A DNA stretch of 64,000 nt from Planctomycetota bacterium (GCA_965223845.1 CBDCXR010000004.1:6784001-6848000); one strand, 5' to 3'; counted from the first letter of the stretch, positions 12,536-52,876 are shown. Program-made: numbers and translations. The notes: generated from the letters alone by a model not told the origin.

Positions 12536-15500
12536 TCAGCGAGCGCACCCGAGCGCGTCTCCGCTCGGATCGACGTCCGCCGCCGGGAACGGCGCCGGCA
12601 TCGCCGGTCCGTTCTGGAAGAGATACGCGAGAATGTACATCGCGTCGGCGATGTTCGCCGACTCGTCGTCGTTCGCGTCGAGTGCGTCCTCGCAATCGAT
12701 CGGCACCCCGCCGAAGAGGTTGAGGAGCACCTTCAGCGGATCGGAGACGTCCACGCGGCCGTCCCCGTTTGCGTCGCCGCGGACGAAGGTCGGCGGTGGT
12801 GGCAAGTACGTGAACGTGACGGCGTTCGAGGTCTGACCGTCGATATTGCGGACGGTGACCGAAACCGGCCCCTCCGTTCCTGCCGGGACGAGTGCGGTGA
12901 GGCTTGTCGGATCGACGCCCTCGTCGAACTCGACGCCCGTCGCCTCTTCCGTTCCGAAGAACACGCGGATTCCGTCGCGGAAGTCCGCGCCTTCGATCGT
13001 GACCGTCGTTCCGAGGGCCGCGGTGTCGGGCGAAATCGTCGTTAGGCTCGGCGGATCCCAGTCGACCGTCGTCGTAACGGTGATCGTGTCGAGCGCGACG
13101 AAGTCGCCCTTCAGCGTGAACGCGAGGAGCGTGAGCTCGTTCGCCCCGCCGTGGAGCGCGATATCGTCGATTCTCCAGCCGGTCATGCTCGTGAACCGAA
13201 CCGGGTAGGCTTCGTCGTTGACGGTGATGACCTGAACGTCGATCGGAGCGTTCCCCGAGAGATCGACCGTCACCTCGTCGGTCGAGAAGTCGTTCCCCGA
13301 ATTCGTCGAGATCCGGAACGCGACGTTCTCCTCGCACACCGACTCGATTCTCGTCTTGAGGCGAGAGTGCCGCTGGTCGATGTAGCCGCCGGGGAGACCG
13401 ACCTGAACGTTATTCATCCCGAGCGCTCCGAGCCGCTCCATGTAGGGAGACAGATAGTCGGAGTGGAACCACGGGTCCGAGCCGCAGACCATCTCGGCGA
13501 GTATCCCGTAGTACATGCGCTTCACGGGCAGGCGACTAAAGAGGCGCTGCACTTCGGCGAAGCCGCCGGGGCTGTAGGTCGAGTTCGGATTACTCGGGAT
13601 CATGAACGCGTCGACGTTTCCGTACGTGAGCTCCATATCCCAGGCGATCGTGTTCCAGCGCCGATCTTCCTCCGGCTCGTAGAGGTAGCAGTTCTTTCCG
13701 CGATTGGCGCCCCAGTGGTCCCAGTCGTCGGTGTTCAGCCGGACCGCCCACATGCGGAGCATCTCTTCGACGTTCGCGACGTCGAAGATCACGTTGTCGT
13801 ACGCCGTGTTCCCAGTCGCACCCGGGTCCATGATGCGCGCGAACTCGATCAGGCGGGAAAAATCGTCGGCGCCGTTGTTCATGCGGAGACCGAAGAACCA
13901 GCGGTAGTTTTCCTTGTTCTCGCCGTTTCCATCCCCGCGCGAGCTCGGCGGGGGATAGAGAACGCGGGCGTTCGTGTTGCCGGCGCGACTCCCGTCGTCG
14001 CGAATCACGAAGCGATCGTCGACCTCGAAGAACGCGCCGTCGCTGTCGCCCGGGAACCAAAGCGAGATGTACTGCGAATCCGGAACCCAGACGTGCTCGC
14101 GGACCGCGCTCCCGCGCGAGTTCACCTTCCACCGCGTCATGGTCTGGACTTCGGAGTAGGGGACGCGCGCGCTCGGCGATTGCTGCTGCCGGAGGAGATA
14201 GTGCGAGATGCGCTCGCGCGCGTTCGCGCCGTTGCCGTGGTGATCTTCGAGGTTGAACTTCCGGATCCACCCGTGGAGAGGGTCGTGCCGCGGCATGGCG
14301 ACACGGAAGCTCCCGCCCCAACTTCCGCGCGCGAACGGGCTGCCGGAGAAGCGGGTCTTCGACTCGTAGTAGATCTGTTCGGAGCCGAACACGAAGGAGC
14401 CCGGAATCAGCGCGTTCGAGAGCCGGCGCCGATTCGTGAGATAGCTCTCGTCGTTCGACGTCATCCAGAACCGGTAGTTGTGATAGCGACCGTCGATCAT
14501 CTTTTCGTCGTGCCCGTAGATGATATGGCGCTGCTCGCTGAGGCTGGCCGAGCTCGGGTCGATGATCAGGGGGTGCGTCCGCTCGGTGATGTCGACCGGG
14601 TACCGTCCGTCGCGGCCGGTGTTGTCCGATGACTCGATGTGATAGACGACACGCGTGCCGAGCGGCCGGCCGGGGAGCGTCGCTTCGTAGATTCCTCCGC
14701 CGATGTGAGTCATCGTACGCGAGCTCGGCGAGCTCGACGGATTGCTCGTCGAGTAGCGAACGGTGACGTTCGCGACGCCGTCGGTATCGCTCACGCGCGC
14801 CCAGACCGTGACGGACTCGTTGTCGCCCGGCACCGCCGGATCTTGTCGGACGTCGGTGATCACCGGCCCGAGATTCGAGCTGCCGCTCGCATCGATGAGC
14901 CGCTGGGTCACGCTGTTCCGCGCGCCCGGCGTTCCGAGATTCTCGGGGACGATGAGCTCGTGCGACTTCGCCATCGCGTGGCGGTAACCGTGCGTAAGGA
15001 TCGTCTGTGACCCGACGACCCAGCGGGCCTTGAGCGAGATCTGAAGGTCCTCGTTCGTATTCAGAGCGCCGATCCCGGAGTTCGACGTTTCGATCCGGTT
15101 GACCTTGTTGTCGCCGCGCCCGGTCGCGATCACCTTGAGCGATCCGGCCCCGGTGATCGGGTCGATCGTCGTCACGTCGCTTCGGTCGTGCGTCCCTTCG
15201 ATGATCCATCCGCTCGTGTTGCTGTTGAACGTCCCGTTCGAGATCTGCTCGCTACCGCCGCTGAAGATCGTCGTTCGGTCGACGAGCGCCGGATCGAAGG
15301 AGAGGTCGCTGCTGCTGATCCCCGCGTTGTGCACCTGGACGGCGAAGACGTTCGTCCCGGACACGAGAAGATTCTTGAACGACGAGATATCGACGGTTCG
15401 CAGCTCCGGCTCGCCGGCGCTCGGAGCGGCATCGTTGTAGTTCTTCCCGCTCACGTTGTGGCTCGCGACCTGTGTGCCGTTCAGGTACGCGTAGAACCCG

Positions 15501-18097
15501 TCGTCGATGACGACCGTGAACACGAGCTCGTCGATGCCCGCGGGGTTCGCGACATTGAACTCGCGGCGACAAAAGATCGACATGTAATCGTCTTCCATGT
15601 CGCTCAAAACGGTAGCGTCGTCGTTATCGCCGTAGCCGATTCCGGTCGCTCCCGAGAGCCAGCTGCCGTCGTTGAAGTCGATCTCCGTCCAGTCCGCCGG
15701 CGGATTCGAGCGCCCCTTGAAGTAGCGCCAAATGGCGCCTTCGGCGATGAGCGGCGTGTCGTCGAAGGTGGTTCCGCCGCCGATCACCGAGACGTCATCC
15801 ACGATGGTGATTCCGCGGGCGAGGAGCGCGATGTGGAGCTCCGATTCTTCGCCGCCGTGGCGTCCGATGTAGTCGATCTCGGTCACGGGGGCCTTCGCGG
15901 AGTCGTCGCTCGCGTCCCAGGCTTGGCCGAAGCGATTGTCCTGTTCGGGATCGATGAGCTCGAGCGACGAGCCGAGGCCGTCCGTCCACCGCGGCCACTC
16001 GCCGCCGTCGTAGTAGCGGATCGTGTCGACGGTCCGGCCGAGAGTGTCCTGGAGGGTGACGCGCTCGCCGCGGTCGCTCAGGCTCCCGAAATCGTCGCGC
16101 TCGAGCTCCGTCTCGGGCCCGATGACTTCCCCGCCGAGACCGTAGATGCTTCGAATGAGATCCGGGTCGCGCGCGACGACGAGGTAGTCGCCGGCACCGA
16201 GCGAGGTTCCCGGCGGAAAGACGAAATCGACGCCGTTCGTGAGCGCCCATCCCGACATGTCGACCCCGGTGGAGCCGCGGTTGTAGAACTCGATGTACTC
16301 GCGGTTCCTCGACTGATCGATCGGGTGGAACATCACTTCGTTGATCACGATGTCGTCGTTCACCGACATCTCGTTCGCCGCGCCGGGCGTCGGGTCGCTG
16401 GCGTCGGAAAACTCCGTGTCGCCATCGGGGACGCGCGCCTCGCTCATATCGTCGTAGTCGGGGCGGAAGTTGTAGGCGTCGAGCACCTGATCGCCGGTGT
16501 CGTTCACGAACGCGATGAAGACGTTGAGTCCCGAGAGCGCCGGGGAAAGATCGAAGCCGAGATCGCTGCCGTTAAACGTCCGGTATCCGCCGCCCGGGAT
16601 GTTCGTCCCCGCAGGGATGGTGTACTTCGTGAGATCGGTTTGCTGATCGGTGAGATGGAATCCGCTGATATCGACGTTTTGGCTCGACGTGTTGTGGAGC
16701 TCGATCCAGGGCTCGTCTCCCGTGCGGAGGAGCGCCTCGTTGATGAGCACCGGGAACCGCGGCGCCGGACCGCCGCCCGTCGGTGGGGGCGGGGGCGGAT
16801 CGCCGGGCTCTTCGATCGGATCGCCGCCGCCGCCGAAATTCATCCCGAGCGTGTGGTCGAGAGTGACCTGGATTTCTGAATTGCTCGCGAGAGGAGTCCC
16901 GGTGTTGCGTCGTTCGAAGCGAAATCGGAACGACCAGCCGCCGCCGTTCTCGAACACCTTGACGACGACGAGATTCTTACCCGGCTGGAGCGTCGCGGGA
17001 GCGCGATCCTGCACTTCACCGCTTCCGCCGACGCCGCGGCACGCGTCGTTCGAGTGTACGTAGTCTCCGTTGAGGAGGACGGAAATCCCGTCGTCGCTCG
17101 CGACCGCCACGTCTACCGCGAGCGCGGTGTCGGCGATGTTGTCGACGTAGCAGAACGCGTACGCCATCACGTTGTTGGGATCCGGCGGCCATACGGCGTC
17201 GTTGTAGTTGATCGTGTCGCCGAACGACGAGTAGGCCGCGATCGTGGGCGTGTTCGTCGGCGAGTTGGGATGGAGGCCCGTCGATTCGGCGAGCGAGTAG
17301 TTCGTGTTGACGACCCGATCGTCCTCCCAAAGGAGGTCGGTCTCGACGTCTCCGCCGGCGCTCTCCCGCAGCCAATCCTCCGTGAGTCGGCCGCCCAGGT
17401 TGCACGACGATCCCTGGTACGGACCGAGAACGAGCCACTTCGTGATGAAGCCGTTCGGATCGACGCCGTCGCCGGTGTCGCCACCTGGGACGCCGACCTC
17501 GAAGAGTCCCGAGTTCGCCTCTCCCGGAGTCCCGCCGATCTGGTCGCTCAGCGTCCAACTGTCGCCGTCATCGTTTTCGAGATACGGCTGAACGAGCGCG
17601 AGTGTGTGACCCGTTCCGTCGGCACCGACCCGCCACTTGCCGCGGTCGTTGTACCGAACCTCCGCGATCGTGATTCCGGCCGGGTTGCAGATCTCGACGC
17701 GCTCGCCGCCGTTGGAGAGTGCACCCGTCCAATCGCCGACGGTATTCGTGATTCCGTACTCGGCCTGGATGGCGGCCTCGTTCGAGCAGATGACGAGAAA
17801 CGACTTTCCCTCGAGAAAGAGTCCGTCCGGAAACTCGAAATCGACTCCGTTACAGATCGTGTAGCCGGTGAGATCGAGTGGGTCGGGGTTCTCGTTGTAG
17901 ACCTCGATGAATTCGAGGTTCGGGTTCTCGGGTTCGGTGACGTGGTAGTGGATCTCGCTGATGACGAGGCCCATCGCGGGCGCGGACAGGGCGAAGATCA
18001 GGGCCCCGATGGCGAAGGCTCCCACAAGCGGGCGGACGGAGCGGACGCACGGAGCAGCACCACAACGGACCCGACGACTGCCGGACCGAGTTTTCAT
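12536..18097 (-). CDS. Large secreted protein: lamin-tail domains + jelly-roll modules + CotH kinase domain + IPT/TIG + dockerin
   Basis: Three LTD starts (VISEIHYH, VLINEALL, VINEVMFHP). CotH motifs DDWDHW..NRGKNCYLY and IAWDMELTYG. Dockerin FVRGDANGDGRVDVSD. Start moved to MKTRS (18097) because an extended -10 lies at 18226-18234. Confidence 0.85.
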   Translation of the reverse strand: MKTRSGSRRVRCGAAPCVRSVRPLVGAFAIGALIFALSAPAMGLVISEIHYHVTEPENPNLEFIEVYNENPDPLDLTGYTICNGVDFEFPDGLFLEGKSFLVICSNEAAIQAEYGITNTVGDWTGALSNGGERVEICNPAGITIAEVRYNDRGKWRVGADGTGHTLALVQPYLENDDGDSWTLSDQIGGTPGEANSGLFEVGVPGGDTGDGVDPNGFITKWLVLGPYQGSSCNLGGRLTEDWLRESAGGDVETDLLWEDDRVVNTNYSLAESTGLHPNSPTNTPTIAAYSSFGDTINYNDAVWPPDPNNVMAYAFCYVDNIADTALAVDVAVASDDGISVLLNGDYVHSNDACRGVGGSGEVQDRAPATLQPGKNLVVVKVFENGGGWSFRFRFERRNTGTPLASNSEIQVTLDHTLGMNFGGGGDPIEEPGDPPPPPPTGGGPAPRFPVLINEALLRTGDEPWIELHNTSSQNVDISGFHLTDQQTDLTKYTIPAGTNIPGGGYRTFNGSDLGFDLSPALSGLNVFIAFVNDTGDQVLDAYNFRPDYDDMSEARVPDGDTEFSDASDPTPGAANEMSVNDDIVINEVMFHPIDQSRNREYIEFYNRGSTGVDMSGWALTNGVDFVFPPGTSLGAGDYLVVARDPDLIRSIYGLGGEVIGPETELERDDFGSLSDRGERVTLQDTLGRTVDTIRYYDGGEWPRWTDGLGSSLELIDPEQDNRFGQAWDASDDSAKAPVTEIDYIGRHGGEESELHIALLARGITIVDDVSVIGGGTTFDDTPLIAEGAIWRYFKGRSNPPADWTEIDFNDGSWLSGATGIGYGDNDDATVLSDMEDDYMSIFCRREFNVANPAGIDELVFTVVIDDGFYAYLNGTQVASHNVSGKNYNDAAPSAGEPELRTVDISSFKNLLVSGTNVFAVQVHNAGISSSDLSFDPALVDRTTIFSGGSEQISNGTFNSNTSGWIIEGTHDRSDVTTIDPITGAGSLKVIATGRGDNKVNRIETSNSGIGALNTNEDLQISLKARWVVGSQTILTHGYRHAMAKSHELIVPENLGTPGARNSVTQRLIDASGSSNLGPVITDVRQDPAVPGDNESVTVWARVSDTDGVANVTVRYSTSNPSSSPSSRTMTHIGGGIYEATLPGRPLGTRVVYHIESSDNTGRDGRYPVDITERTHPLIIDPSSASLSEQRHIIYGHDEKMIDGRYHNYRFWMTSNDESYLTNRRRLSNALIPGSFVFGSEQIYYESKTRFSGSPFARGSWGGSFRVAMPRHDPLHGWIRKFNLEDHHGNGANARERISHYLLRQQQSPSARVPYSEVQTMTRWKVNSRGSAVREHVWVPDSQYISLWFPGDSDGAFFEVDDRFVIRDDGSRAGNTNARVLYPPPSSRGDGNGENKENYRWFFGLRMNNGADDFSRLIEFARIMDPGATGNTAYDNVIFDVANVEEMLRMWAVRLNTDDWDHWGANRGKNCYLYEPEEDRRWNTIAWDMELTYGNVDAFMIPSNPNSTYSPGGFAEVQRLFSRLPVKRMYYGILAEMVCGSDPWFHSDYLSPYMERLGALGMNNVQVGLPGGYIDQRHSRLKTRIESVCEENVAFRISTNSGNDFSTDEVTVDLSGNAPIDVQVITVNDEAYPVRFTSMTGWRIDDIALHGGANELTLLAFTLKGDFVALDTITVTTTVDWDPPSLTTISPDTAALGTTVTIEGADFRDGIRVFFGTEEATGVEFDEGVDPTSLTALVPAGTEGPVSVTVRNIDGQTSNAVTFTYLPPPPTFVRGDANGDGRVDVSDPLKVLLNLFGGVPIDCEDALDANDDESANIADAMYILAYLFQNGPAMPAPFPAADVDPSGDALGCAR

Positions 18098-18225
18098 TGA
18101 GACGAGCCTCTGACGGGAAGAAAAACCGGCGACGCGGCGCAGAGGACGCGCGGCCCAGCCGGAACGGAGGGAGTCTCGCTGCGGGCGAGACCGGGTGTCG
18201 AACCAACCCTGTGTACGAATTCCCG

Positions 18226-18234
18226 ATTGTAGCA
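18226..18234 (-). promoter_or_regulatory. Extended -10 promoter TGCTACAAT
   Basis: TG-n-TACAAT on the minus strand about 130 nt upstream of the proposed start. Confidence 0.5.
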
Positions 18235-18316
18235 CAGATGTGTGGGGAGAACGGGACGTGCCCACGCTCCGTCGAGCGCCCCAGGTTCGCCCAATGTTTG
18301 GGGGCAGCGTCGTCGG

Positions 18317-19303
18317 TCAGTCGATCAGGTCGATCTCGACGCCGAGTTCGCGGGCGAGCGGTGAGGTGAGGCGCTGGATCTCGTGGTCAGCGTGGCGAAA
18401 CGCGCGGACGAGCGCGGCGATGCGCCCGAAACGAGATTTTGGCCCGGTGCAGGCGAGGCCTCCCACGAAGTGGGCCCACGCGTTCTCGGGGTGGTCGCGG
18501 AGCACGCTGGCGATGCAATCGAGGGCTCGACCCGGCACTCCCGTCGTCACGAGTGCGTAGCCGTAGTAGACGTCCAGGATCGGCTCGCTCCAGTCGGCGC
18601 CCTCGGGCGCGCATTCGTACACTCGGATGAGCTCCGGCATATCCGCCGATTCGAACGCCCGGTCGAGCGCGGCCGCCCAATCCGCACGGGTGCCGGGGGT
18701 GCCGGGACGCGGCTCCCTGGAGCCCGCCGGTTCACTCGACGATCCTCTCGCGGCGTCCGGCTGAGAGGTGAGCTCCCGATGGTGGAACGAGGCGAAAGCG
18801 TCCCGGCCGCGCGCTTCGAGTCTCGTCTCGAGCGCGGCGAGGAGGCGTCCGCCCGTCTCGGCGATCCAGAGCGCGCCGCGATGGAGCGAGAGCCGAGAGG
18901 GCTTTCCGTTCGTCTCGATCTCGTCCGCCTCTCGTCTCTCCGGCGTCTGTTCGAGCCGGATGAGCGCGCGGAGCGTGTGCGCGATCGCGTTCTCGCCCTC
19001 GAGCTCGCTCGCGAGCTCGTCCGCCCGGTCGATGTCGCCGTAGTCGTAGTGACCCAGAGCGCCGAGGAGAGTCGCCGCTGCGTTCGAGCCCGGGTGGGCG
19101 GCCGCGGCCGCGGCGAGCATGTCCCGCGCCGCGTCCGGCTCGCCGCGCTCGAAGAGGACGCGCGCGAGGGGAAACAGGATCTCGGGACGATCCCCGCGCG
19201 CTTTCCGCAATCGCTCGAGCGCGGCGTGCGCCTCCGCGAGCTCACCTCGGGCCCAGTGGGCTTCGGCGCGTGAGAGCTGGCGTTCGGCGGCGATCGAGGT
19301 CAT
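18317..19303 (-). CDS. Tetratricopeptide-repeat protein
   Basis: TPR-like helices EILFPLARVLFERGEPDAARDML and ENAWAHFVGGLA. Start taken at MTSIAAE. Confidence 0.7.
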   Translation of the reverse strand: MTSIAAERQLSRAEAHWARGELAEAHAALERLRKARGDRPEILFPLARVLFERGEPDAARDMLAAAAAAHPGSNAAATLLGALGHYDYGDIDRADELASELEGENAIAHTLRALIRLEQTPERREADEIETNGKPSRLSLHRGALWIAETGGRLLAALETRLEARGRDAFASFHHRELTSQPDAARGSSSEPAGSREPRPGTPGTRADWAAALDRAFESADMPELIRVYECAPEGADWSEPILDVYYGYALVTTGVPGRALDCIASVLRDHPENAWAHFVGGLACTGPKSRFGRIAALVRAFRHADHEIQRLTSPLARELGVEIDLID

Positions 19304-19769
19304 CGAAAAGGCGATCGGGAGATGTTCAGCTCGCCCCCCGGGCGGGAGGATACCGGAACTATCGGCCGGGCCGCCCGCGATCTGAACCGGGCGGGTCGGA
19401 TCCCCGGGCCGGGAAAAACTTCGCGATCGAATTTGCAACCGTCCGGAGATTGCCCGAAACTGAGCCGTGGGACGAGACGTCCGTCGACCTCGACGCGAGG
19501 TTCTGTCCGAGAAGACCTCGCAGCCAGATTCGGGTAGAAATTTCTAGTGGAACGGGGAGCTCGGACGTCTCTGATAGAGAGAGGGGATTCGCGTTTGTCC
19601 GCGAACCGAATCCTTCCGAACGGGGTTTGTACGAGTACGGTCCGTCGGCCCGGCGCTCGCTAGAGCGAGGGGCCATCGCAACGGGCCAATGCAGATTGGC
19701 GATCACTCGGAGTCGGGGTCCGGCCGGGCCATCGACCCTCAAGGCAGGACGTTTGTTGGAGGTTGAGTC

Positions 19770-20675
19770 GTGAAATACCACCGAGTTCTCGGCGTGTTAG
19801 CCGTGCTCGTGCTGGTGATTCCGACCGGAACGTGTCTCGAGGCCGGCGAGAAGAAACCGCCGTCCCCGCGAAAGGTGCTCGTGAAGGCTCTGAAGAACCT
19901 TCAGAAGAGCGGCAGCTATCGCACGCGAGTCCGAGTTTCCGGTGGAGTCACGGAGCGGAAGGATCACAAGGTCCTGACGCCGACGGTGGCGCGGAGCTAC
20001 GAAGGCGAGGTTTTCGGCCGCGTCATGAAGGTCTCGCATCCGTCGGTGTTCCGCACCGCAAAGCAGGGTGCGATCCGTACCGGCGGGACCTGGAAGTCCC
20101 TTCTCGCCGCCCGCGAGGGCGTGACCCTCGATCGCCTCTTCCTCTTCCCCGACCAGATTCTCGCGAAGGCCGTCAAGCATTCGAAGACGGCTCAGTGGGT
20201 CGAATCGAAGTCCGCGAAGTCGAAGAAGAAGAAAAAGGAGTCCGACGCGGACGAGAAGGACGGAGACAAGAACTCCGGCCGCACCGTGGTCGTCAAGAAG
20301 AAGGGCGATTCGGTCCCGTTCCCGGGTCGGATTCGCGTCGAGGCGCCGGCCAAGGAGTCTCTCCAGCACGTCCTTACGGTGCAGAACTCCAACTGCTTTG
20401 GCGCTGGGTGAGGCGTCCCCGCTATCTTGTCCAGTATGGACAAGACCCTCACCAACGCGATCTACGATATCGAAATCGATGAGAAGACGTACCTCCCGAC
20501 GAAGATCCGCGTTCTCGTGATGGCCGGGACCCGCGATGGGACCGAGCGCGAGGGACGGAAGATCGTCGGCGGGAAGCACGTAGCGATGCACTTCACCTAC
20601 GACCTGAAGGATTTCGGCGAGATCGAGAAGCCGGAGATCCCGAAGCCTGCGGCGAAGCTGATCGCGGCTCGCTGA
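19770..20675 (+). CDS. Candidate selenoprotein (in-frame UGA at 20409-20411, C-x4-U): secreted LolA/LppX-like protein, 301 aa
   Basis: ORFs 19770-20411 and 20427-20675 are in the same frame with only the TGA between them (NSNCFGAG-U-GVPAILSSMDKT). SECIS-like hairpin at 20425-20445, GGAGG SD, signal peptide, and a terminator only after 20675. Confidence 0.75.
20407..20453 (+). promoter_or_regulatory. Putative bacterial SECIS element
   Basis: Perfect 9-bp stem TCTTGTCCA-GTA-TGGACAAGA starts 13 nt after the UGA, with loop G at +23. A lower stem GGTGAGG (20407-20413) / CCTCACC (20447-20453) includes the UGA. Confidence 0.7.
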
Positions 20676-20717
20676 GCCGCCCAAATTCGCTAGCCCTCAG
20701 AGAGGGCCGGCCCTCAG

Positions 20718-20762
20718 AGAGCACTGGTCGCTCGAGAAATCCTCGGGCGGCCAGTGCTTTTT
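20718..20762 (+). terminator. Rho-independent terminator
   Basis: AGCACTGGTCGCTCGAG / CTCGGGCGGCCAGTGCT stem (two G-U pairs) ending in a run of five T. Confidence 0.75.
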
Positions 20763-21063
20763 CGTGGGTCATTCTGCGGGAGGAACGACGCTCTCGGCGG
20801 TAGTACCGTCCGTGTCCGCAGCCCGCCGCCGGGCCGTTTCGAGCTGGAAATCCAGGGGTTTCCGCGGCCGATGGGCGAGAATACTCGGGAAAAACAGGGA
20901 AAATCGCGTTCTCGGGCTTGACGTGCTCGATGGAAACGCGGTATGTACCATTCCGCTCAAGCTTACATACAGTCACCGAAGGGTTTTGGCGACGGGCCCG
21001 ATGGAGGGGTCTGCGGGCCCGGTAGGTGAAGGGAAAGCGTCCTTCTCGAAAGGAAGAGGAGAC

Positions 21064-21399
21064 ATGGCGAAGAAGAAAGCCACGAAGGCGGCTGGGACGA
21101 AGCCGATGACGAAGAGCGAGATCCAGACGCAGATCGCGGAGAAGACCGGCCTCACCAAGAAGGAGGTCGCTTCGGTCTTCGAGGCGCTGACCGACGTCGT
21201 CGGGAAGAACCTCGGCCGCCGCGGTCCGAAGGTCTTCACGATTCCGGGACTCGTGAAGTTCAAGGTGCAGCACAAGAAGGCGACGAAGGCTCGAAAGGGC
21301 ATCAACCCGTTCACGGGCGAGCCGACCGTCTTCAAGGCGAAGCCGGCGCGGAACGTCGTGAAGGCGCAGCCGCTCAAGGCGCTCAAGGACATGGTCTGA
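21064..21399 (+). CDS. HU family DNA-binding protein with basic N-terminal tail
   Basis: Motifs MTKSEI, FTIPGLVKF and ARKGINPFTGE. AGAGGAG SD upstream. Confidence 0.93.
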   Translation: MAKKKATKAAGTKPMTKSEIQTQIAEKTGLTKKEVASVFEALTDVVGKNLGRRGPKVFTIPGLVKFKVQHKKATKARKGINPFTGEPTVFKAKPARNVVKAQPLKALKDMV

Positions 21400-51799: not shown

Positions 51800-52876
51800 C
51801 TACCGGCGATCCGGTGCCGCGTCGGTTGAGCGTTCGGACCTTTCTGGTTTCTCTTTGGGTGCGGCGTCGCTCCCGCCGCCGGAAGATTCGTCGTCCGCCG
51901 CGAAGTACTCCGAGCTCGGATGGAACCGCTTCCAAGCGCGCCGGTACGACACGAGCGCGGGCAGCATCCGCAGTTGCGCGCCGCGAAGTCGTCCGCTCGT
52001 TGCTCGTCCCGTCGTTCGGTCCCATTCGCTCTTCGTTTCGCGGTCGCGAAGTCGGTCGCCCTCCACCGCGAAGGAGAGCACCCGGGTCTTCTCGTCCGCA
52101 CCCGAGATCTCGCGCGAGTAGAGAACCGCGCTCGTCGACTCCGAGTCGAAGACGACGAGCACGGGTGATTCCGCGATCACGTCGTCGACGACGGGACGTC
52201 GCGTCAGTGCGTCGAACGGATACGCCTTCGCGTGTCCATCGACGACGGTTCCGAACACGAAGCGCGCAGGGTCGCGATAGAAACTCCTCTCATACGCCTT
52301 CGCCGTGCGGCGAAGGGCGAGAACCGTCGTCTGGGGATGGCGTTTTCGCCAATCTTTCCAGGTCGTCATCACGGCAGGCAGGATCTCGAGCTGTGTCCCC
52401 TTCAGCTCGCCGTCCATGCACTCGCCCAAGATGTGGCTCCAAAGGGAGCCCGTTTCGAGATCGCGCATCACGAGACTTCGATTCCACAGCATGCCGGAGA
52501 CTTGAAACGTCAGCTTTCGACCTTTGACCTTGCTGGCGTAGACCACGCCATTGTGACAGAGGTGTCACCAGGTCGCGGCGATCGCGGTGCCGGCGAGGAC
52601 GTCGTTGATGATCTCGCGCGTCGGCTGCGTGAGCTGGTTGATCGGGTAGGCTCGCGCGCGTCCGTCGACGACGACGCCGAGAACGAGCTCCGTGTCGCGG
52701 ACCTTGTCGCCGATCGTCTCGGCGGGGAGAGTCGGCGCGTCGGTGATCGCGGGGAAGGGCGAGACGACTTTCCGCGGCTTGAACTCGCGTTCGCCGGCGG
52801 CGAGCGGTGTCCCGACCGCAGTGAGGGCGAGGATCGAGGCGGCGAGTGCGCCGAAGCGGTCTCGGGTGCTGATCAT
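51800..52876 (-). CDS. DUF3179 selenoprotein (in-frame UGA at 52565-52567, U-x-x-C), 358 aa
   Basis: ORFs 52565-52876 and 51800-52546 join in frame: AYP...EIIND...IAATW-U-HLCHNGVVY...SGMLWNRSLVMRDLETGSLWS. U sits at the first Cys of the family TxCPLC motif. Signal peptide and a SECIS-like hairpin are present. Confidence 0.88.
52534..52550 (-). promoter_or_regulatory. Putative bacterial SECIS element
   Basis: TGGCGT-GGTCT-ACGCCA hairpin starts 14 nt after the UGA. Its GGUCU loop matches the loop sequence of the E. coli fdhF SECIS. Confidence 0.75.

Follow-up and report, generated by a model that had tools for sequence, protein, structure and literature searches.

A UGA-interrupted gene of uncultured Planctomycetota as a candidate exported selenoprotein with a predicted LolA/LppX/LprG-type fold

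Does the TGA codon at positions 20409-20411 end a small gene, or is it a codon inside a larger one? The question arises in the window analysed here, a stretch of 64,000 nucleotides from a Planctomycetota bacterium (GCA_965223845.1, CBDCXR010000004.1:6784001-6848000), in which an open reading frame (ORF) started by GTG on the plus strand (19770-20411) runs for 213 amino acids and terminates at this TGA. Beyond it, no further stop occurs in the same frame before the TGA at 20673-20675, which gives 301 residues when the two parts are read as one. A preceding interpretation made from the nucleotide sequence only, referred to here as the sequence-only reading, had proposed that the two parts share one frame split by nothing but this codon and together encode a secreted selenoprotein of a new family; the ORF structure agrees with the first of these statements. 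On comparative sequence grounds, we consider it very probable that this is a genuine selenoprotein gene in which the UGA at 20409-20411 stands for selenocysteine (Sec). With only slightly less confidence, positions 19770-20675 (plus strand; 301 codons followed by a TGA stop, with Sec as codon 214) can be regarded as one gene for a putatively exported selenoprotein, with a predicted fold of the LolA/LppX/LprG type and a proposed Cys/Sec reactive centre. Five kinds of observation carry this interpretation: a conserved UGA, a covarying selenocysteine insertion sequence (SECIS) hairpin, a complete Sec machinery, a coding pattern downstream of the UGA, and a predicted carrier-like fold consisting of one domain.

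In regard to the codon itself, the TGA at 20409-20411 (plus strand), read as residue 214, is kept at the homologous place in relatives, and it is accompanied by a conserved partner, Cys209 (TGC, 20394-20396, plus strand), which lies five codons ahead of it and is invariant in an alignment of 16 homologues. Together they form the motif C-x4-U (C-F-G-A-G-U), and the junction reads ...QNSNC-FGAG-U-GVPAILSSMDKT. When 41 related genomes were searched in six frames, 33 of them proved to encode the protein, and the best match contained one in-frame TGA in each of these (33/33); the strong full-span matches all had exactly one TGA, at the same place. The motif [NK]-S-[GN]-C-x4-U occurred at the same position in 20 of the 20 loci that were fetched. 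A pattern scan, with one genome per species, was based on a 10-residue peptide pattern that stops just before codon 214, and TGA was the next codon in 45/45 confirmed loci found in this way, with 28-47% identity to the query. Because the peptide pattern excludes the TGA codon, this count is independent of the feature counted. The family was present in 34 of 401 sampled Planctomycetota genomes; these include members of a second lineage (f27; 7 of 11 genomes), which have ~25-30% identity and likewise carry TGA. While the terminal stop (20673-20675, plus strand, in the window) varies among homologues between TAA, TAG and TGA, the internal TGA is constant. The sequence-only reading had expected homologues aligned across the UGA with either TGA or Cys at this position; the TGA part of this expectation held in the related genomes, in the pattern-found loci and in the second lineage, while no homologue with Cys there was found.

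As far as sampled, the selenoprotein family is confined to uncultured Planctomycetota. Record titles of the pattern-found loci refer to 'Planctomycetota' or 'Planctomycetia' metagenome-assembled genomes (MAGs) with five exceptions, four of which are labelled 'bacterium' or 'uncultured bacterium' (L053, L059, L064 and L077). A typical member of the family was also seen in L081, a MAG titled as Bacillota, whose label or binning may be wrong. At the protein level, searching 1.84 billion cluster representatives with a profile yielded 214 proteins, 94 of them at E up to 1e-30. Among the 151 representatives examined, the C-terminus falls exactly at C-x4 in 95, and another 19 are pieces of 64-95 amino acids starting just past the UGA, so that gene callers evidently split the family. 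A word-indexed protein search returned four proteins, all cut at the UGA and carrying blank or 'hypothetical' names. Variants with C-x5-U exist as well, often as the second copy of a tandem. Two small marine genomes have tandem arrays with between two and four members, at L097 (G027 contig C4, ~14.1-18.5 kb) and L098 (G030 contig C43, ~246-249 kb). In these arrays, copies without TGA stand beside a single C-x4-U copy and a single C-x5-U copy, the latter with a SECIS hairpin of its own.

Decoding of a bacterial UGA as Sec is linked to a hairpin in the messenger immediately downstream. The sequence-only reading described a perfect 9-bp hairpin with a GU loop 13 nt past the UGA, and folding recovers exactly this structure: positions 20425-20433 pair with 20437-20445 (20425-20445, plus strand) around an apical GUA closed by an A-U pair, and the distance from the UGA to the loop is 22 nt. 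The hairpin alone folds at -11.7 kcal/mol, and the 76-nt fold around it at -26.7 kcal/mol (z = -2.2). According to the published rules for bacterial SECIS (bSECIS) elements, the loop has 3-9 nt and the stem 4-16 bp, a G stands at the first or second position of the loop, the spacing from the UGA is 16-37 nt, the minimum free energy (MFE) is at or below -7.5 kcal/mol, and the loop follows the pattern N1-G-[G/U]-N-N2 (PMC13188914, section 5). The window hairpin agrees with the bSECIS rules in its stem, its A-GUA-U loop, its spacing and its MFE.

The same hairpin was followed in 47 distinct homologous segments of 75 nt, aligned without gaps and with the stem in columns 30-36/42-48. Its position is fixed, and 95.1% of the stem cells across the 47 sequences hold standard pairs. 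Three stem pairs are changed on both sides (CG/UA 38:3, CG/UA 23:11 and GC/CG 43:1). The observed pairing or covariation score was reached by 0 of 500 shuffles, and partner columns slid out of register pair at 32-47%. Not all compensatory changes are silent at the protein level, as replacements of Lys by Arg and, in L084, of Asp by Glu show; this speaks for selection acting on the RNA. Furthermore, the Ser codon within the stem is TCC in 47/47 sequences, the apical loops (CGUGC, GGUGC, AGUGU, CGUGU, AGUAU, AGUUU and AGGUU) are of the NGU/GGU type in 47/47, and 44/47 hairpins have an MFE of -7.5 kcal/mol or lower. Covarying hairpins in homologues, which had been named as support for the proposal, are therefore present. 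A second element of the original description fared less well: a lower stem of 7 bp that includes the UGA (20407-20413 with 20447-20453; 20407-20453, plus strand) is indeed present in the window, but it is not conserved, as only 43% of its cells are paired across the 47 homologous sequences, and sequestration of the UGA was rejected as a feature of the family.

The sequence past the hairpin behaves as a continuation of the same gene. Over 76 codons and 7 homologue pairs, the frame of the UGA shows 147 synonymous versus 80 non-synonymous codon differences, and the other two frames of the same codons show 20:207 and 12:207. Residues L242, P291 and A294 are invariant, and D237, T240, G267, H270, F273 and Y277 are nearly so. 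Judged from these comparisons, the downstream part is under in-frame purifying selection. Translation signals point in the same direction as regards the start: a GGAGG resembling a Shine-Dalgarno sequence lies 7 nt before the GTG (19758-19762, plus strand; direct reading of the sequence), and the same kind of reading of the window finds no GGAGG-like motif ahead of the TTG at 20427, the candidate start of an 82-codon ORF six codons past the UGA. The earlier remark that the downstream half has no such signal of its own is thus correct. In addition, the group of family f6 has CTG where other members have TTG or GTG, and hence there is no shared internal start.

The source genome (7.93 Mb in 4 contigs, 91.7% complete) has what is needed for Sec insertion. 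A tRNA-Sec was detected above the cut-off at 68.1 bits, and ARAGORN also reports it as tRNA-SeC with the anticodon tca; selB (320 bits), selA (536 bits) and selD (308 bits) all exceed their curated cut-offs. This was among the checks proposed together with the sequence-only reading, and all four components were found. Among the 41 related genomes, 40 contain selA. Furthermore, the window holds a DUF3179 gene (51800-52876, minus strand) with a single in-frame TGA in the motif W-U-H-L-C. DUF3179 (PF11376) is a catalogued selenoprotein family with a UxxC/T motif (PMC13188914, Table 1), which the motif of the window gene fits, and the earlier suggestion that this gene points to the use of UGA for Sec is borne out.

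The encoded protein begins with a probable signal peptide (residues 1-26, MKYHRVLGVLAVLVLVIPTGTCLEAG; 19770-19847, plus strand), with a basic n-region, a hydrophobic run and a cleavage site placed by inference. The basic n-region and the hydrophobic run are found in 16/16 aligned homologues, and the predicted local distance difference test (pLDDT) value of these residues is below 50. A Cys near the end of the signal peptide occurs in some homologues; as it is not conserved, a lipoprotein anchor is not supported. Residues 148-180 (20211-20309, plus strand) constitute a Lys/Glu-rich insertion of variable length, predicted to be disordered (pLDDT below 50) and absent from most paralogues without Sec. 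Inside this otherwise variable segment, a G-R/K-T-x-V motif was observed (20277-20291 in the window), in which G170, T172 and V174 are invariant.

The AlphaFold2 model, computed on the 16-sequence alignment, has a mean pLDDT of 80 and a predicted template modelling (pTM) score of 0.74, with pLDDT values above 90 on either side of residue 214. The strands 223-236, 243-261 and 264-280, all encoded past the UGA, are placed in the same sheet as the N-terminal strands. The best Foldseek matches in the PDB were LprF, LprG, LppX and LolA (E 3e-5 to 5e-4, probability 0.99-1.00), and chains of ApoB-100 fell within the same E-value range. Comparison with VIA-align gave LppX (2byo, Z 10.9, root-mean-square deviation 3.3, 153 residues aligned of a 183-residue chain), LprG (3mh8, Z 10.9), LprF (4qa8, Z 10.2), LolA (4mxt, Z 9.9; 8cgm, Z 9.5) and RseB (2v42, Z 8.5), with alignments covering model residues 28-301. 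The guess of a LolA/LppX/LprG-like fold, made from short stretches at the two ends of the protein, is supported by both programs. In the predicted structure, the two halves form one half-barrel domain of the carrier type. Together with the single frame and the coding-type substitutions downstream, the single AlphaFold domain argues that they are not independent genes.

Several results weigh against this interpretation. None of the 17 aligned full-length relatives without TGA has Cys at the Sec column (0/17); the residues found there are Arg, Glu, Trp, Leu, Ser and Thr, or a gap. Since almost all selenoproteins have Cys homologues, at least as put in a passage of PMC12013277, the lack of a Cys form is unusual. 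In P0029, a full-length homologue that is fairly close, Arg takes the place of Sec. A mismatch in one stem pair occurs in 12/47 of the hairpins, and 3/47 are weaker than -7.5 kcal/mol. In the model, the loop around Sec (residues 211-220) has a mean pLDDT of 61, which corresponds to moderate confidence, and the likeness of the fold is at the superfamily level only, with template modelling (TM) scores of 0.3-0.47 (0.38-0.47 on the target) and 7-14% identity. Searches with the 301-residue protein found 0 Pfam families at E up to 10 and 0 NCBIfam matches, and a profile sequence search of the PDB gave nothing relevant apart from two chance-level matches; because structural matches stand beside these empty sequence searches, the protein appears to have a LolA/LppX-type fold and yet to be a member of no sequence family. 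Finally, no neighbour common to the different families emerged when the ORFs of 17 loci were compared all against all, and the genomic context accordingly lends no functional support.

The relatives without TGA deserve closer description. Cys209 is kept in nine of the 17 (P0029, P0037, P0120, P0086, P0092, P0093, P0116, P0144 and P0145), and P0037 has a Cys one position before the Sec column, in a longer loop. Divergent paralogues have, for example, Trp (P0125) or Arg (P0086) at the aligned column. The sequence-only reading had stated that Trp, Gly or Arg in homologues would speak for a nonsense mutation or a sequencing error. Such residues do occur, as Arg in P0029 and other residues in divergent paralogues, but they form a small minority. 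Among the relatives compared, no Cys form was found, and by this comparison the family is obligately Sec. P0029 itself reads …NSGCMSRG-R-GVSRF…, which could mean that its lineage abandoned Sec through a change of TGA to CGA. His66 and His270 are nearly invariant in the Sec family and are conserved in the non-Sec paralogues too. One non-Sec paralogue is encoded elsewhere in the window's own genome (contig C4, ~3.10 Mb; L040 1941-2906, minus strand); it has 321 amino acids and Q-C-C-S-G-A-V in place of C-x4-U. The end of a gene for a 683-residue protein with a CotH domain (L040 2903-4954, minus strand) overlaps this paralogue by 4 nt, which suggests translational coupling of the two.

In regard to the mechanism, the UGA at 20409-20411 would be decoded by the standard bacterial route, in which the hairpin at 20425-20445 recruits SelB loaded with Sec-tRNA(Sec). 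This hairpin would lie inside the coding sequence and itself encode L-S-x-x-D-K. The protein would then be exported by means of a cleaved signal peptide, leaving a mature form of ~275 residues, in which the strands encoded past the UGA would complete the half-barrel sheet and the Lys/Glu-rich insertion would be flexible. In the predicted structure, the Gly-rich loop C209-x4-U214 connects helix 194-205 to helix 216-222. If LolA and LppX are taken as a guide, these two helices may cover the concave hydrophobic face; with such a placement of the helices, the selenol/thiol pair would sit at the cargo site. There, the Cys/Sec pair, as the putative reactive centre, could alternate between a selenol/thiol state and a selenenylsulfide, or serve to capture a ligand that is electrophilic or a soft metal. 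As a guess, we favour a reductase or scavenger in the periplasm that deals with hydrophobic peroxides or electrophiles and is possibly re-reduced by exported proteins with a thioredoxin fold. The biochemical role proposed, a redox-active or ligand-capturing Sec/Cys centre on a periplasmic carrier of hydrophobic cargo, is inferred only. In its fullest form, the proposal is that this is the first selenoenzyme with a LolA/LppX fold, obligately dependent on Sec, whose selenol/thiol at the mouth of a hydrophobic pocket acts in the planctomycete periplasm on a hydrophobic compound that stems from the membrane, and either reduces it or captures it covalently; a lipid hydroperoxide, a quinone-like electrophile and an organometal are examples of such a substrate. 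We put this forward tentatively, as a possibility that is more probably wrong than right in at least some of its parts; if true, it would mean a new selenium-dependent route of envelope lipid protection or trafficking.

Its chief functional rival accepts the same selenoprotein and assigns it a different chemistry, in which the Cys/Sec loop together with H66 and H270 would form a site for a soft metal or metalloid (e.g. Cu, Hg, Ni or Zn), and the protein would be a periplasmic metallochaperone or scavenger, not a lipid redox enzyme. The persistence of both histidines across Sec and non-Sec members fits such a site, as does a LolA-like haemophore (8xjc, Z 6.0) among the structural matches, and several catalogued bacterial selenoproteins bind metal (PMC13188914, Table 1). 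On the other hand, no metal-transport or metal-resistance genes are conserved beside the gene, and the strongest structural matches are carriers of lipids or lipoproteins; we consider a metal site rather unlikely, roughly a one-in-five kind of explanation, and somewhat behind the reductase or scavenger of hydrophobic compounds.

Other explanations concern the UGA itself. It could act mainly as a regulated stop, with the 213-residue protein as the usual product and Sec read-through as a rare or selenium-dependent event that gives rise to two products. Bacterial Sec insertion generally competes with release factor 2, and the lower stem in the window genome pairs the UGA itself. However, this stem is not conserved, the shorter form would lose the three long sheet strands between residues 223 and 280, and purifying selection extends over the downstream part, all of which leaves a regulated stop improbable. 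Less credit still is due to the view that the TGA is a true stop, a nonsense mutation or an assembly error, and that the 82-codon ORF is separate or untranslated. Public annotation does divide the family in this way, as seen in the 95 truncated forms and 19 C-terminal pieces, and a TTG is available six codons past the UGA; but the TGA occupies the same codon in 45/45 loci at the divergence given above, the CTG of the family-f6 group leaves no common start, and the single predicted domain needs both halves. Against an assembly error, the stretch 19700-20750 recurs with 0 differences in four run-wise assemblies of one sample, although these are possibly the window's own source and for this reason are not independent support. 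Equally remote is a recoding of UGA as something other than Sec, by reassignment to Trp or Gly or by near-cognate read-through. The Trp of P0125 and the Arg of P0029 and P0086 at the aligned column are what it can draw on. Yet the gene itself stops at TGA and its homologues at TAA, TAG or TGA, and as TGA also serves as a terminal stop, it is not reassigned genome-wide; in addition, the SECIS-type hairpin has GU in its loop at a canonical distance, the Sec machinery is complete, and a conserved Cys accompanies the position, like in the known CxxU and UxxC selenoproteins. Decoding as Sec within one gene thus stays the interpretation that we carry forward.

How such a selenoprotein relates to known systems depends on whether structure or sequence is considered. 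The best structural matches of the model, the LppX, LprG, LprF and LprA lipoproteins, are exported half-barrels with a hydrophobic cavity that carries glycolipids or triacylglycerides, according to the titles of their entries. They show no sequence-level relationship to the selenoprotein family, in which their lipobox Cys is not conserved, and they lack Sec and a redox loop, whereas the selenoprotein family adds the Lys/Glu-rich insertion and the C-x4-U helix-loop-helix. These mycobacterial proteins presumably correspond to the Pfam family LppX_LprAFG, which was matched by no search here. LolA/LolB and RseB/MucB belong to the same fold superfamily and are all periplasmic binders of acyl chains, but again there is no sequence similarity, and no Lol genes are conserved near the selenoprotein gene; LolA and LolB also have no catalytic Cys or Sec. 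With the catalogued bacterial selenoproteins (CxxU, UxxC, CU or UxxxxU), the family shares an in-frame UGA, a SECIS immediately downstream, dependence on SelA/B/C/D and a Sec paired with a nearby Cys, and many of them are exported as well. It differs from them in having no Cys-form homologues. In terms of function, glutathione peroxidase 4 (GPx4) may be an analogue, though no more than that, as the Sec centre of the family might similarly act on hydrophobic peroxides and be resolved by Cys; the fold of GPx4 is unrelated, and no GPx motif occurs in the C-x4-U family. Reduction of lipid hydroperoxides by means of Sec is characteristic of GPx4-type enzymes.

Most characterised selenoproteins have thioredoxin-like folds (PMC13188914). 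The 119 prokaryotic selenoprotein families and subfamilies compiled in 2026 (PMC13188914, Table 1) include no LolA-like entry and no C-x4-U motif, and NCBIfam, including the NF04xxxx selenoprotein models cited in the same table, gave no match. Full-text literature searches (selenoprotein with LolA, and planctomycete selenoproteomes) found no description of the family among the papers listed, with the candidates in Table S9 of PMC4807772 not compared. The family is absent from the catalogues checked and stands on a fold new for selenoproteins, and the statement in the sequence-only reading that a Cys/Sec pair on a carrier fold is not among the described selenoproteins holds for these 119 families, NCBIfam and Pfam. 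It would place selenium chemistry on an architecture known only for the passive carriage of lipids and lipoproteins. In the parts of the two reports concerned, all new selenoprotein families of the GOS paper had Cys homologues, and methods based on Sec/Cys pairs are described in the deep-Sep paper as resting on Cys homologues. Going by these passages, a family with no Cys form that occurs only in MAGs would escape such methods, and a gap in discovery may exist for families of this kind from uncultured organisms. There is also an error of annotation to mend, as the cluster representatives cut at the UGA and the C-terminal pieces illustrate, and a hypothesis can be offered on the envelope redox biology of marine and groundwater Planctomycetota.

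Other features of the locus were recorded along with the gene. After the stop codon, an intrinsic-terminator-like hairpin (20721-20736 with 20742-20757) is followed by U5 (20721-20762, plus strand; direct folding), and the segment 20721-20757 folds at -40.2 kcal/mol (z = -7.9). This agrees with the earlier statement that a terminator follows 20675 as far as the hairpin and the U5 are concerned, but a simple consensus terminator scan did not list it. A scan of the whole window at Rfam gathering thresholds produced 0 matches, which is uninformative because bacterial SECIS elements are poorly covered by such models.

On the other side, a gene on the minus strand (12536-18265) encodes a giant secreted protein of 1909 residues, in which three Lamin-tail (LTD) domains and one TIG domain were recognised, and CotH weakly, and next to it lies a TPR protein (18317-19438, minus strand), divergent from the selenoprotein gene. 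Large proteins are also encoded near the gene in family f2: the selenoprotein gene is situated directly downstream, on the same strand, of a gene for a protein of ~1800-2050 residues (L088 1547-7693, plus strand; L091 9084-14411, minus strand) that combines malectin and Laminin_G_3 domains with a beta-propeller of the PQQ type. The idea that the family is linked to giant surface proteins was considered and dropped as unsupported. Likewise, long open frames in family f27 resembled fusions, but on inspection they consisted of no more than GC-rich open sequence preceding normal signal peptides. Downstream of the terminator-like hairpin, the window continues with a 211-codon ORF (20764-21399, plus strand) with a C-terminal DNA-binding domain of the HU/IHF type, the real start of which may be internal.

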